A DNA stretch of 41,157 nucleotides from a virus. Taxonomy: Duplodnaviria > Heunggongvirae > Uroviricota > Caudoviricetes. Shown piece after piece: positions 1-17,518 of this stretch. Numbering within the stretch: the stretch's first letter is position 1; every line of letters starts with the position of its first letter. The translations under genes and the position numbers were made by a program. The notes beneath the pieces were generated by a model that had not been told where the DNA came from, ran no database searches, and saw only the letters and a list, made by a program, of their open reading frames with translations. The stretch lies in IMG/VR virus record IMGVR_UViG_2648501336_000006, positions 1 to 41,157 of that record; one strand, given 5' to 3'.

Positions 1-1284
1 CTACTTCTTCGCCTCTGCAACCACTTTGCTACCCACGCCGCGGTTATTGTATTCCCACATGCGGTTGTAGTTAGTGTCATTCAGATTGCGCTGTACTTCG
101 TCGTTATCATCAACGCTGCCGGTGTTACCCGCAAATGGACGATTAGAGATCACCGCATCAGCCCACGGTTTGGCTGTGTTAAAACCTTCGTTGATGGCGC
201 TATCACGGATCACTACCTGACCGTTGGTATTGGCATCAACATCCAGCGAGCGGCCCAGTTGCGCCACGCCATCACCGGAAGCATTGAAACGGCTGTTTAC
301 GGCGAGGAAACCGTAGTAAATGTTGGACAGCGTAGCCGGTGCAAACACATACGCTTCTTGCTGGGTACGGGAGTTCACCACGCGGAATTCGGTGTTATCG
401 AACACCACTGCGCCGCGACCAGAAACGATATCCACATCCCCTTCAATATAGCTGTTGGTCACCAGCGTACGCGGCTGACGATTCGTTTCCAGACGGTTCT
501 GCACACCGCTGTTGGTGACAAAGAAGGTGTTCTGACGACCGAGAATGTTGACGTTATTGATCTGCACTTTGTCGCCATCAGTACGCAGTGCCACCGCCGG
601 ATGGTTACCCGCATCTACGCTATCGCCCAGCGTGTTTTCGATGGTCAGGTTTTGCAGTTGCAGGCCATTGTTTTGTGACCAGAAGACCGCAGAGCAGAGA
701 ACACCGATACTGTCGCTGCGTTTACTCTGGCAGCTATCGTACATATACCACGCCGGTTTACCTGGCATATATTTGCCGCGCGGGTTGACGTCGTGACGCC
801 AGTCGGCAGGGCTCATGCCACCATCAAGGGAAAGCCCAATCTTCACATCAATCGGTTTTTCACCCGTACCGTACAGAGTAATTCCACCCGGAGCGGCAGG
901 GACATACACCGTTCCCTGATACTCACCAGGCATCACGGCAATATACTGGCGCTTGTTGGTACGCTTGATAATTGCCGCATCTACCGCCGCCTGAATCGTG
1001 GTATGCGTTACACCTTGAGTACCCGCCGGGCCGACAACAAAGTCAGGTTGCGCAGGCAGGGTAATCGGGGAAGGATTCCACGCTGCCGCACCTGGTGTCA
1101 GGGATGCAAAATAGTGTTGAGCATCGAAATTCTGCGCTTCTTTTGCCGACAGAATCGGGCGCGAAGAGGTACCAGGCGCGGTTTGATCAGAAGGACGTTG
1201 ATCGGGCGGTGTTGAGCTACAGGCGGTCAGCGTCACGCCAAAAGCCAATGCCAGCGCCAGACGGGAAACTGAAAATGTGTTCAC
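1..1284 (-). CDS. ybhC: Host lipoprotein YbhC (putative pectinesterase / acyl-CoA thioesterase family), complete 427 aa
   Basis: Full-length ORF with lipoprotein signal peptide and lipobox (LTAC) at the N-terminus; recognised as E. coli YbhC, the gene flanking attB-lambda; stop codon at bases 1-3. Confidence 0.85.
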   Translation of the reverse strand: MNTFSVSRLALALAFGVTLTACSSTPPDQRPSDQTAPGTSSRPILSAKEAQNFDAQHYFASLTPGAAAWNPSPITLPAQPDFVVGPAGTQGVTHTTIQAAVDAAIIKRTNKRQYIAVMPGEYQGTVYVPAAPGGITLYGTGEKPIDVKIGLSLDGGMSPADWRHDVNPRGKYMPGKPAWYMYDSCQSKRSDSIGVLCSAVFWSQNNGLQLQNLTIENTLGDSVDAGNHPAVALRTDGDKVQINNVNILGRQNTFFVTNSGVQNRLETNRQPRTLVTNSYIEGDVDIVSGRGAVVFDNTEFRVVNSRTQQEAYVFAPATLSNIYYGFLAVNSRFNASGDGVAQLGRSLDVDANTNGQVVIRDSAINEGFNTAKPWADAVISNRPFAGNTGSVDDNDEVQRNLNDTNYNRMWEYNNRGVGSKVVAEAKK

Positions 1285-1418: not shown

Positions 1419-2489
1419 TTATTTGATTTCAATTTTGTCCCACTCCCTGCCTCTGTCATCACGATATTGTGATGCCATGGTGTCCGACTTATGCCCGAGA
1501 AGATGTTGAGCAAACTTATCGCTTATCTGCTTCTCATAGAGTCTTGCAGACAAACTGCGCAACTCGTGAAAGGTAGGCGGATCCCCTTCGAAGGAAAGAC
1601 CTGATGCTTTTCGTGCGCGCATAAAATACCTTGATACTGTGCCGGATGAAAGCGGTTCACGACGAGTAGATGCAATTATGGTTTCTCCACCAAGAATCTC
1701 TTTGCATTTATCAAGTGTTTCCTTCATTGATATCCCGAGAGTATCAACATGCAATGTTGTAGGGATGGCAATTTTTACACCTGTTTTGCTTTGCTCGACA
1801 TAAAGATATCCATCTACGATATCAGACCACTTCATTTCGCATAAATCACCAACTCGCTGCCCGGTAACAACAGCCAGTTCCATTGCAAGTCTGAGCCAAC
1901 ATGGTGATGATTCTGCTGCTTGATAAATTTTCAGGTATTCGTCAGCCGTAAGTCTTGATCTCCTTACCTCTGATTTTGCTGCGCGAGTGGCAGCGACCGG
2001 GTTTGTTGTTATATGGCCTTCAGCTATTGCCTCTCGGAATGCATCACTCAGTGTTGATCTGATTAACTTGGCTGACGCCGCCTTGCCCTCGTCTATGTAT
2101 CCATTGAGCATTGCCGCAATTTCTTTTGTGGTGATGTCTTCAAGTGGAGCATCAGGCAGACCCCTCCTTATTGCTTTAATTTTGCTCATGTAATTTATGA
2201 GAGTCTTCTGCTTGATTCCTCTGCTGGCGAGGATTTTTTCGTAGCGATCAAGCCATGAATGTAACGTAACAGAATTATCACTGTTGATTCTCGCTGTCAG
2301 AGGCTTGTGTTTGTGTCCTGAAAATAACTCAATGTTGGCCTGTATTGCTTCAGTGATTGCTATCCTCCTGTCTCGGCCTAATCCAAACTCTTTACCCGTC
2401 CTTGGGTCCCTGTAGCAGTAATATCCATTGTTTCTTATATAAAGGTTAGGGGGTAAATCCCGGCGCTCATGACTTCGCCTTCTTCCCAT
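1419..2489 (-). CDS. int: Lambda-type integrase (tyrosine site-specific recombinase), 356 aa
   Basis: ATG start confirmed; N-terminus MGRRRSHERRDLPPNLYIRNNGYYCYRDPRTGKEFGLG recognised as lambda Int; length identical to lambda Int; adjacent to attL P' arm. Confidence 0.97.
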   Translation of the reverse strand: MGRRRSHERRDLPPNLYIRNNGYYCYRDPRTGKEFGLGRDRRIAITEAIQANIELFSGHKHKPLTARINSDNSVTLHSWLDRYEKILASRGIKQKTLINYMSKIKAIRRGLPDAPLEDITTKEIAAMLNGYIDEGKAASAKLIRSTLSDAFREAIAEGHITTNPVAATRAAKSEVRRSRLTADEYLKIYQAAESSPCWLRLAMELAVVTGQRVGDLCEMKWSDIVDGYLYVEQSKTGVKIAIPTTLHVDTLGISMKETLDKCKEILGGETIIASTRREPLSSGTVSRYFMRARKASGLSFEGDPPTFHELRSLSARLYEKQISDKFAQHLLGHKSDTMASQYRDDRGREWDKIEIK

Positions 2490-5481: not shown

Positions 5482-5775
5482 TCAGTCATTACTGATAGCG
5501 CCATAGCGTGAGCGGTAATTACGCAGGCGCGGGTCAATTTCAGGGAAGTGGGTATATGTGGCTTTGCGGAATGGTCGGATTGATGTCTGGTAAATTCGCT
5601 CGCGTTCTTCTTTCTCTGCAAGCCATATACAGTGGCGAAATTCCTTTTCCTCTTTCGTTTCCTGTGGTAGCGACATTATCCGATCGTAGTTTCTTCTGAA
5701 TTTATCCAGCACCTCCGATACGGAATTGCCGGAACAGCGGCGCGCGTCATCCGCACCATACAGAGGCGCTGGCAT
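5482..5775 (-). CDS. Hypothetical early protein (97 aa)
   Basis: ATG start with AGGAGA SD 6 nt upstream. Confidence 0.6.
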   Translation of the reverse strand: MPAPLYGADDARRCSGNSVSEVLDKFRRNYDRIMSLPQETKEEKEFRHCIWLAEKEERERIYQTSIRPFRKATYTHFPEIDPRLRNYRSRYGAISND

Positions 5776-5791: not shown

Positions 5792-6340
5792 TTATTTAGC
5801 TAACTTTTTCCAGATCGCTGAAACGTATTTGGCTTGGTGAATGGCATCATCAAGCGCGTTGTGGCGAGTTCCTTTGAATGGCATATCTCGCTTAGGGTCG
5901 AATCCTATTACCTTCCCAAGTTCGACGATTGTTCTTACGTCGCGGTCATTCCACCACTGCCACGGAACTGGCTGCCCTGTCAGCGAATAACTGTTGCGGA
6001 GAATAACGCAGTCAAATGATGCTCCATTCCCCCAAACCTGAACGAATTTGTGGTTAGCGTTCTTTATGATGAATTCAGATAACCATGAAAGAGCCGTTGA
6101 AAGCTCCTGAGTGTTGCTGGTTAGCGATTTTCTGGCTTCTTCACTCTGTTCCAGCCACCATAAAATCGTTGAAGCGTCAGGACGCGCCCGATATCGCATT
6201 GATGACTCAAGCGAGATATTTACCGAGAACTCTTCTCCTGTTTCTCCGGTATTCGGGTCAAAGAATACTGCCCCAATAGAAATAACTGGCGCGTATGGCC
6301 CGTTGCCCATTGTTTCAAGGTCAACCATCAAGTGATTCAT
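5792..6340 (-). CDS. DnaQ-like (DEDDh) 3'-5' exonuclease, 182 aa
   Basis: Exo motifs visible: DLET (Exo I), GASFD (Exo II), HNALDDA (Exo III); ATG start with AAGGA SD. Confidence 0.75.
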   Translation of the reverse strand: MNHLMVDLETMGNGPYAPVISIGAVFFDPNTGETGEEFSVNISLESSMRYRARPDASTILWWLEQSEEARKSLTSNTQELSTALSWLSEFIIKNANHKFVQVWGNGASFDCVILRNSYSLTGQPVPWQWWNDRDVRTIVELGKVIGFDPKRDMPFKGTRHNALDDAIHQAKYVSAIWKKLAK

Positions 6341-6348
6341 GTAAGTCC

Positions 6349-6855
6349 TTAAATTGCGTGAATAGCGTGACGAGGGAAGGGGAGAGTTACTGGTGCAAAG
6401 GGTATATCGTCGTCAAAATCCATCGGAGGTTCGTTGTGTTGTGCTGGTGATGATTGCTGCTGTGGCTTCTGTGATTGCCTGCTGGCTGCTTGTTGTTTGC
6501 TGTCGCCAATGCCGCCAAGCATTTGCATCACGCCATTAATTCCGACATGAACCTCGGTTGTGTAACGGTCTTGTCCTGACTGGTCTTTCCACTTTCTGGT
6601 TCTCAGCATTCCCTCGAAATAAATCTGATCACCTTTTTTCACATACTGCCCCACGACCTCAGCCAGTTTCCCGGATACAGCAACACGATGCCATTCAGTC
6701 AATTCCTTTTGCTCGCCAGTATTTTTATCTCGCCATTGTTCTGACGTGGCTATTGTCAGGTTAGCGAACGCTGTTCCTGATGGTGAGTATCGAACTTCCG
6801 GGTCTTGTCCTACCCGACCAAGGATAATCACCTTATTTACGCCTCTGCTTGCCAT
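6349..6855 (-). CDS. ssb: Single-stranded DNA-binding protein SSB with 15-aa extension beyond the DDDIPF tip
   Basis: OB-fold region closely resembles E. coli SSB ([27 protein letters not shown]...); contains [10 protein letters not shown] followed by [15 protein letters not shown] before the stop. Confidence 0.9.
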
Positions 6856-7563
6856 TTATGCCGCCTGTTTTAGTTCGTTAACTCTGATGTTCATTACCTG
6901 AACGCATTTAGCCTGCGCATCCTCATTGCCAGCCATTAATTGCCAGTCACGCTGATAACGCTCGATGAGTTTTTTCTTGTCAGTTTCTGTTGATGCATAA
7001 TCGCTGAAGTCTTTCAGGATTTGTTCGCAGTCAACCGATGGAGATTTCTGGTTGGTATTTTCTGGTGATGGTTTGTTATCTGATGCTGGGATTGCCCATA
7101 CCAGCAGCGATGGAGGGAGCCAGTAAAATCCTGTTCCATCCTTCAGTTTTGCCCTGTGCCACCCCTGTTTTTTATCGAGAGATGTTTGTGCGAAACCTTC
7201 CTCAAGGTTATACAGATACCGACCGATTCCCCACTGAACGGCAGCGCGCTTCATTGCACCGGAACGACCACCTTTGACGGCTTCTACCTGCGTGTTTTCA
7301 GCAGCATCCCATTTGGTTACCCATTCGGAATCAATCTTGATTGATATGCCGCATTCAACTCCGCCGTTGTTGGGAATATCGCGGTATTCATTGCGCCATC
7401 CTGCTTTGCCGCAAACATCGTCCAGGCGTTTCATGATTGCCCTGTTCGTGACATAAGCCAGCACCATAGCCCACACCTTGCCATCGCGTGTTTTACCGCT
7501 TTGCTGTATTCGCCATTCGATATCTTCAGGGCTGAATGGCTCATCGAATTTGTTCAAATCCAT
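6856..7563 (-). CDS. Rad52/22-family single-strand annealing protein (recombinase), 235 aa
   Basis: Family assignment from sequence recollection and from position next to ssb in the recombination module; ATG start with GAGGTG SD. Confidence 0.6.
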   Translation of the reverse strand: MDLNKFDEPFSPEDIEWRIQQSGKTRDGKVWAMVLAYVTNRAIMKRLDDVCGKAGWRNEYRDIPNNGGVECGISIKIDSEWVTKWDAAENTQVEAVKGGRSGAMKRAAVQWGIGRYLYNLEEGFAQTSLDKKQGWHRAKLKDGTGFYWLPPSLLVWAIPASDNKPSPENTNQKSPSVDCEQILKDFSDYASTETDKKKLIERYQRDWQLMAGNEDAQAKCVQVMNIRVNELKQAA

Positions 7564-17314: not shown

Positions 17315-17518
17315 ATGTACCGTATGGACAAAATCAGAGAATGGTTCAGTTACAGCTTCGGAGGACTGACTGCGATGGGTGGCATTCTCTCCCTGAATGA
17401 CTGGGCTGTCATCATTGGTATTCTTTGTACTGTCGGCACATTTGGCATCAACTGGTACTACAAGCGCAAAGAGCGCGAGGACAGATTGAATGGCAATGTC
17501 ACCGGCACTACGAAATAG
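17315..17518 (+). CDS. S: Class II holin / probable pinholin with dual-start motif (MYRMDK), 67 aa
   Basis: Two predicted TMDs; M1/M4 dual start analogous to phage 21 S (MKSMDK); upstream hairpin CCCCTCAATGAAGGGG; precedes a SAR endolysin. Confidence 0.75.

Follow-up and report, generated by a model that had tools for sequence, protein, structure and literature searches.

The window analyzed here is the complete 41,157-nucleotide stretch of the viral record IMGVR_UViG_2648501336_000006. By sequence comparison it is best read as a mosaic P22-like prophage, with a recombination-module region 98.6% identical to that of the siphovirus mEp235 and late genes 97.8% identical to those of the P22-like phage Kapi1. 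An integrase ORF lies at 1419..2489. The ORF at 1..1284 has no phage match (the listed phage matches begin at about position 1331) and may therefore represent host flank. The ssb gene is the second of four genes in an early-left recombination module read on the minus strand. Immediately upstream lies a gene for a Rad52/Rad22-family single-strand annealing protein (6856..7563; Pfam PF04098, E = 5e-26), and 8 nt past the ssb stop codon starts a gene for an Rv2179c-like (DnaQ-like) 3'-5' exonuclease (5792..6340; Pfam PF16473, E = 2.9e-73). The last gene of the module (5482..5775) is a homolog of abc2 (anti-RecBCD), named after the annotation of the 98.6%-identical mEp235 region.

The ssb gene itself (6349..6855) encodes a 168-aa single-stranded DNA-binding protein that matches Pfam PF00436 (E = 1.6e-36), scores 166.9 bits against TIGR00621 in an NCBIfam profile search (cutoff 54) and has 100% identical copies in many viral contigs. 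Its OB-fold domain for ssDNA binding and oligomerization (residues 1-114, 6514..6855; Pfam match to residues 6-104) is followed by a Q/P-rich, intrinsically disordered linker (residues 115-145, 6421..6513) with poorly conserved alignment columns, and then by the acidic tip DFDDDIPF (residues 146-153, 6397..6420). The protein thus has the OB fold and the disordered linker leading into D-[DE]-[DE]-I-P-F that mark the SSB family, but the acidic motif is internal and not the extreme C-terminus, as 15 further residues (residues 154-168, 6352..6396; hereafter the cap or tail, recognized from homologue conservation and dN/dS) separate Phe153 from the stop codon (6349-6351). The chromosomal SSB of E. 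coli likewise combines an OB fold and a disordered Q/P-rich linker with an identical DFDDDIPF; there the motif is terminal, whereas the window protein adds 15 residues and is encoded in a prophage recombination operon. In an alignment of 49 sequences (A1), residues F147, P152 and F153 of the tip are invariant, and D148-I151 are at least 90% conserved.

A first-pass annotation of this DNA had noted that the reading frame runs on for 15 residues beyond DDDIPF, and the ORF at 6349..6855, with the tail at 6352-6396, bears this out. The annotation had also named a stop or frameshift directly after DDDIPF as what would overturn its reading, and the window sequence contains neither. Reading of the ssb sequence likewise revealed no in-frame stop and no usable, in-phase slippery site through which recoding might end the protein at IPF. 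The match of the window SSB to the three curated models that reach their own C-terminus (TIGR00621, NF004972 and NF005170) ends at residue 153, so that the cap falls outside the curated SSB models. An AF2 monomer model places the OB-fold strands within residues 8-114 (block-mean pLDDT about 71-88) and assigns a pLDDT below 50 to residues 114-159 and of about 56 to the last 8-9 residues, with a short strand at 165-167. As modeled, the cap is probably an accessible, flexible peptide.

Conservation of the cap and selection on it

Fifteen sense codons beyond a lost stop are not unusual by chance; it is the conservation of the tail, not its length, that goes beyond chance when homologous sequences are compared. 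The comparison with other prophage ssb genes that the first-pass annotation had proposed showed that, of the 120 best clusters of homologous proteins, about 110 end in the same tail or a conservative variant of it; they come from E. coli, Salmonella, Klebsiella, Citrobacter, Enterobacter, Kluyvera, Pluralibacter and Phytobacter. (The representative of P0001, a cluster of 588 member sequences, ends ...PFPRHAI, lacking the last three tail residues.) The uninterrupted junction between tip and tail is found in 297 of 5,426 complete E. coli genomes and in the phage isolates HK75, mEp235, mEpX2, epsilon34, g341c, NM-3, HZ41, ECP1 and CP-1639. The tail follows the consensus [AS]-P-[VI]-[TG]-L-[PQ]-[FY]-x-[RK]-H-x-[IV]-[HY]-x-[IL]; in the 49-sequence alignment, P155 and L158 are invariant and P159, F160, R162, H163 and I168 are at least 90% conserved, next to a poorly conserved linker before the tip. 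The same tail is carried by OB folds only 28-76% identical to that of the window and therefore behaves as a C-terminal module of its own, uncoupled from the DNA-binding domain. When viral contigs were scanned for tail-coding DNA with a degenerate pattern, the tail was found to close two kinds of ORF only, SSBs of at least five body lineages and the endonuclease ORFs described below. Searching the rest of the window for the motif gave a single chance match, in a non-coding frame near 17505.

Proteus, Xenorhabdus, Tatumella, Pseudoalteromonas and others have diverged versions of the tail. When one genome per species was scanned for DDDIPF with [AS]P directly after it, the picture widened: among the matches listed, post-IPF tails include APLHHLAGA and APISRLLLNII in Pseudomonas, APEWR in Rhizobiales, APHFDGQF in Psychrobacter, APIGLQYPALLSVM in Alteromonadales and relatives, and APIGLPYPHIAIHII in Proteus, with further extensions in Xenorhabdus, Tatumella, Sodalis, Chromobacterium and others. 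Among these matches the tail families appear host-taxon-specific (L200-L319, e.g. L228:4606-5118, and L221 and L272 on the minus strand). The Ala-Pro start of most listed tails is partly a product of the [AS]P search pattern. In a sample free of this bias, made up of the 150 top-ranking representatives of 50%-identity clusters, a short extension follows the tip in 15 of the 80 tip-bearing proteins, roughly one in five, and 11 of these 15 extensions begin with Ala. The genes within 2.5 kb of capped SSBs at about 50 listed loci encode ERF (12), YqaJ (9), AAA_24 (7), RecT (6), Sak (1) and Rad52 (1) proteins, as well as methylases and integrases; since the neighbors are phage recombination genes, the sampled capped SSBs all sit in prophage recombination modules. 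Two genes with DNA polymerase III beta-clamp domains and two reverse transcriptases (RVT_1) also lie within 2.5 kb of capped SSBs (L200-L261) and may be either element-borne or chromosomal neighbors.

Substitutions in the tail point to its maintenance as protein. Across the 32 distinct tail-coding DNAs collected, some alleles differ from the window by 6-7 synonymous changes and no amino-acid change. Pooled Nei-Gojobori dN/dS came to 0.14 over the whole set and to 0.07 when TLPF-type tails were taken alone, figures that are descriptive, the sequences being related and partly redundant, but unambiguous in direction. Of 37 possible synonymous single-base variants, the TLPF-type alleles show 25; of 98 non-synonymous ones they show 11. 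At the level of sequence, then, a large clade of recombination-module SSBs from temperate phages possesses the extension as a native C-terminal peptide that is genuine and under selection.

The first-pass annotation had raised the possibility of a sequencing error or stop-codon change, that is, of a normal SSB that reads into junk through an artefact or a recent stop loss. Canonical SSBs do end right after IPF, where the curated models reaching their own C-terminus also end (residue 153). However, an identical or near-identical tail recurs in hundreds of independent assemblies and in isolated phages, and the synonymous-rich substitution pattern is that of a tail kept as protein under purifying selection, which leaves this explanation a negligible probability.

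Selection could instead act on DNA or RNA, through an endonuclease target, a mosaic boundary, translational coupling or an antisense ORF, with the peptide incidental. The mosaic junction with the downstream genes does lie exactly at the ssb stop, and the 45-nt stretch borders an endonuclease insertion site. Yet variation falls mostly at third codon positions of the ssb frame, and the ribosome-binding sites of the downstream genes lie 3' of the ssb stop codon; we regard a nucleic acid element as very improbable. An antisense ORF is present on the plus strand (6295..6450, 51 aa), codon-aligned with the ssb tail and tip, but it is not conserved, since the third-position variation of ssb falls on its first codon positions, and it is probably spurious. 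The pattern of third-position variation excludes selection on this ORF as well as on an RNA or DNA element.

Candidates for co-variation with the tail were also sought among the genes of the module. The annealing protein was rejected, as Rad52 proteins 97-99% identical lie beside both capped and uncapped forms of ssb and the tail also occurs with ERF and Sak4/AAA_24; the exonuclease and abc2 were likewise rejected, the exonuclease being present or absent with either form.

A putative HNH endonuclease cassette at the ssb 3' end

A few viral contigs encode an SSB that is 96-99% identical to that of the window but ends at residue 153. Each such short ssb is followed by an ORF of about 155-159 residues, starting 8-15 nt downstream and ending ...HKHNKPIYPDE[EA]...[HN]AI, with the same 14 C-terminal residues as the SSB tail. 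The 8-15 nt spacing holds for any upstream annealing protein. The ORF matches PHROG 2340 'endonuclease' and has two CxxC pairs, an invariant HH..Y..P..V..L...H...H core and, in the alignment, D115, W124, C126 and W133 at least 90% conserved. The family has no Pfam match, a PDB sequence search was empty, and Foldseek against PDB returned nothing significant. Two N-terminal types occur among the tail-bearing endonuclease ORFs, and in all 32 such ORFs collected (32/32) the tail is in frame. The gene of the MKxCSRC type (159 aa) is present in 95 complete E. coli genomes. In the 12 E. coli RefSeq genomes inspected (H69-H80), the 159-aa ORF is without an annotated feature in every case.

Comparison of the window with such contigs (L054, L075) locates the empty insertion site of the cassette at F153|A154-P155 (6391..6399, minus strand), and the window itself reads as the endonuclease-free allele of a polymorphic site. 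Presence and absence at this one site were confirmed in contigs (L054-L056) whose ssb bodies are 96-99% and Rad52 genes 97-99% identical to those of the window, and E. coli genomes with the endonuclease number 95, against 297 with the empty junction. Aligned with L054, the window loses identity about 27 nt upstream of where the Phe153 codon ends and regains it at CCA GTA ACT (Pro155). Over the tip, the window reads GAT TTT GAC GAC GAT ATA CCC TTT and L054 reads AAC TTC GAC GAT GAG ATC CCA TTT TAA; the endonuclease-free allele carries GATTTTGACGACGATATACCCTTTGCACCAGTA, compared with AACTTCGACGATGAGATCCCATTT in the recoded allele. The SSB of such alleles becomes the canonical short form because the cassette supplies a recoded tip together with a stop codon. 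Recoded tips (NFDDSDIPF, NFDDEIPF, DFDDSDIPF or DFDDQDIPF) were found in all 37 endonuclease-carrying loci and DFDDDIPF in none (0/37), while about 154 endonuclease-free long-form loci have DFDDDIPF-like tips, a correlation drawn from partly redundant loci.

Free-standing HNH homing endonucleases are familiar from phages, with the T4 mob genes and the I-HmuI-type enzymes of SPO1 and SP82 as examples. The ssb cassette resembles them in its small, putative HNH ORF, its precise site by a conserved gene, its polymorphism, its altered target and its decayed copies, so that the site carries the signature of a putative free-standing homing endonuclease. It is unlike them in belonging to a family with no Pfam match and in borrowing the last 14 codons of the interrupted gene. 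The endonuclease would be a homing-type selfish element whose target is the conserved tip-coding DNA, and the recoded tip would shield cassette-carrying alleles from it. A recent survey treats such HNH genes as possible genuine nucleases of the recombination module (PMC12315714).

The presence of one tail on two proteins raises the question of which of them owns it. Endonuclease homologues at 35-88% identity end a few residues past ...WHxxNxPxY, with ends unrelated to the tail (YPEGLEVA, YPEDLKAA, YGEAA); these tail-less homologues still lie directly downstream of a short-form ssb, with ERF, AAA_24/Sak4 or Rad52 as the upstream annealing protein. Since the relatives of the endonuclease elsewhere lack it, the tail is the SSB's own. 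The AF2 model of the endonuclease has a pLDDT of about 98 up to roughly residue 140, and its last two 10-residue blocks, which hold the tail, fall to 67 and 52, marking the tail as an appendage outside the confident fold. A tail native to the endonuclease was ruled out on both counts. As judged from these comparisons, the ssb 3' end is the specific association of the endonuclease family; in tail-bearing alleles its ORF came to read into the last 14 codons of the gene that it interrupts.

The opposite history would make the tail a neutral scar, left functionless in the SSB when a downstream HNH gene was deleted and ssb fused to its last 14 codons. The same 14 residues do close the endonuclease ORF in Sf6-type alleles, and other deletion fusions are known (P0131/P0135; P0144/P0169/P0172/P0174). 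Against such a scar stand the endonuclease relatives without a tail, the two N-terminal types that share the tail only in an ssb context, the low-confidence position of the tail beyond a well-predicted HNH fold, and dN/dS values of 0.07-0.14. Diverged tails on the SSBs of distant genera also imply a long vertical history, and each short-form ssb found in the window's lineage has the endonuclease gene next. We therefore consider a scar improbable by a wide margin and retain the reading of the tail as native to the SSB.

Several related arrangements were noted. P0131 and P0135 join an SSB N-terminus to an endonuclease C-terminus, and P0144, P0169, P0172 and P0174 join an endonuclease N-terminus to an exonuclease C-terminus; these fusions look like decaying cassettes, and some are annotated 'single-stranded DNA-binding protein' or '3'-5' exonuclease'. 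Another endonuclease gene, unrelated to the first and encoding 155 aa with PF13392 HNH_3 and HTH domains, lies between the Rad52-family gene and ssb in L029 (3537-4004; also in L030, L031, L037, L039, L047, L050 and L051) and overlaps the ssb start, where the SSB begins MSSRGINKV, against MASRGVNKV. Two E. coli matches (H41, H42) have an insert of ~460 bp with an annotated HNH endonuclease between Rad52 and ssb, probably the same HNH_3 gene. With this second endonuclease at the 5' end, both ends of ssb seem to be endonuclease insertion sites with flanking recoding. L078 (2734-3231) holds a third endonuclease type (165 aa; HNH_3, E = 1.6e-13) after a short-form ssb ending NFDDEIPF, with no tail DNA downstream. 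On the minus strand of a Sodalis sp. contig (L214), a long-form ssb (23-640) with the tail APLGLQYGRNFIYAIS precedes an ORF of 188 aa with a CxxC start (MAGISFMQSVKKCNKCKLIKPITEFYCHKE) like that of the endonuclease family; insertion 3' of the tail's stop codon may thus also occur.

Possible roles of the cap

Known partners of SSB dock its C-terminal Phe, for which the chain end must be accessible. Because docking requires a free C-terminal Phe at the chain end, the cap should block the docking of host partners. On ssDNA coated with the phage SSB, it would prevent canonical docking of ExoI, RecQ, PriA, chi and others, which would shield 3' tails for the neighboring annealing protein and suit a module in which the remaining genes serve to anneal ssDNA and to disarm RecBCD. 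An SSB with GFP fused to its C-terminus no longer binds ExoI and acts as a dominant negative (PMC7293020), and it is the final residues of SSB that phage annealing proteins use (PMC13490951; PMC5928155). The fusion is the best functional analogue available, in that the SSB-Ct is present and non-terminal, but its addition is a bulky domain, whereas the cap is a short, conserved and selected peptide. The conserved tail motif could also provide a different docking peptide for another partner. The first-pass annotation had suggested an SSB that binds ssDNA without recruiting host partners, or one with a different partner specificity, and in our analysis host-partner exclusion or changed partner specificity would be the most plausible functional readings. 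We favor, by a modest degree of confidence, a joint account in which a native, selected cap renders the tip internal and alters docking, and in which a homing-type endonuclease occupies the site.

The cap is not essential, as Sf6, IME10 and N7 are viable phage isolates with an uncapped SSB, and it may be removed in vivo by proteolysis. Capping may moreover be secondary to another function, since a mere block needs no conserved 15-residue motif. The tail could be a portable docking peptide that recruits its carrier, SSB or endonuclease, to one partner, which may be the sliding clamp, a protein of the recombination module or another host hub, with masking of the tip incidental. A specific motif is conserved, not just any sequence; the tail is in frame on the endonuclease in 32 of the 32 ORFs collected, OB folds with as little as 28% identity share the tail, and tail families follow host taxon among the matches listed. 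The sliding-clamp motifs QL[SD]LF and QLxLxL offer a comparison, PVTLPF resembling QLSLPL or QLxLF: PVTLPF and PIGLQY match at the hydrophobic positions and lack the Gln. This missing Gln counts against the clamp, the motif is not matched by the tails of Pseudomonas (APLHHLAGA) and Rhizobiales (APEWR), and no neighboring gene co-varies with the tail, so that any partner is more likely a host factor or SSB itself. Overall, we consider the docking peptide rather unlikely, though it deserves serious consideration.

A turnover or processing signal would make the C-terminus a protease tag or removable pro-peptide, timing the level of SSB or the exposure of its tip. The tails end in small or hydrophobic residues (HAI, YAI, HVI, AGA, NII), the tail is predicted with low confidence and is probably flexible and accessible, and the basic-then-A-I end of the SSB tail resembles RRKKAI, the ClpX motif of MuA. 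This is, however, a resemblance of motif only, and it leaves the conserved N-terminal half, P-V-T-L-P-F, unexplained; we consider such a signal improbable.

Extending the favored account of a native, docking-altering cap to the wider class, temperate phages of the Proteobacteria may mask the SSB tip and so hide their ssDNA from the host interactome, with the cap recruiting a dedicated partner and the endonuclease toggling natural populations between masked and unmasked states. We propose this only tentatively. If true, masking would keep SSB-stimulated ExoI and RecJ away from 3' ends, poison the restart and repair pathways of the host, or let the phage escape defenses that sense or depend on the tip.

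Relation to known systems and significance

A close natural comparison is with Sf6 gp27 (SSB) and gp26 (endonuclease) and the corresponding genes of IME10, N7, CurroJimenez_Bas106 and Huey, which have the same module and the same tail DNA as the window. There the endonuclease carries the tail and a recoded IPF closes the SSB, whereas the window allele is uninterrupted. The sole earlier mention that we found is in the Sf6 GenBank record, which remarks on 14 contiguous amino acids of gp26 identical to E. coli SSB. A precedent for partner-specific ends on phage SSBs is provided by HK620, another lambdoid phage with a ssDNA-binding protein in its recombination module: the last six residues of this protein (HhaK), NDYPPF, are needed to stimulate its cognate Sak4 (PMC5928155). 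HhaK differs from the window SSB in being of another sequence type with a free ...PPF end, and no extension past the aromatic residue has been described for it.

The first-pass annotation had also named, as a finding that would overturn its reading, an extension that is common and functional in characterized homologues. It is common, but characterized homologues are wanting: a 2025 survey of lambdoid recombination modules describes the SSB-1 proteins as experimentally unstudied and places partner-interaction domains outside its scope (PMC12315714). Our literature search returned no description of SSBs with a conserved post-IPF peptide, nor of an endonuclease family at the ssb 3' end. While the SSB family, the SSB-Ct and free-standing HNH endonucleases are well known, the conserved post-IPF peptide thus appears to be undescribed. 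We consider the observation solid and the evolutionary account well supported.

For annotation, the result means that capped proteins are labeled as ordinary SSBs and that the adjacent 159-aa endonuclease ORF goes unannotated in the RefSeq E. coli genomes inspected. Natural near-isogenic pairs, capped in mEp235 and HK75 and uncapped in Sf6 and N7, make the question of masking directly testable. Phage SSBs are emerging as triggers or targets of the retron and DRT defense systems, and a masked tip could bear on such defense. In the bacterial genome-maintenance hub, the free C-terminal Phe of SSB is regarded as the universal docking point, and it also underlies a design rule of recombineering, by which the annealing protein is chosen to match the seven terminal SSB residues. 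Common, selected phage SSBs in which this Phe is internal suggest that phages tune the access of proteins to their own ssDNA.
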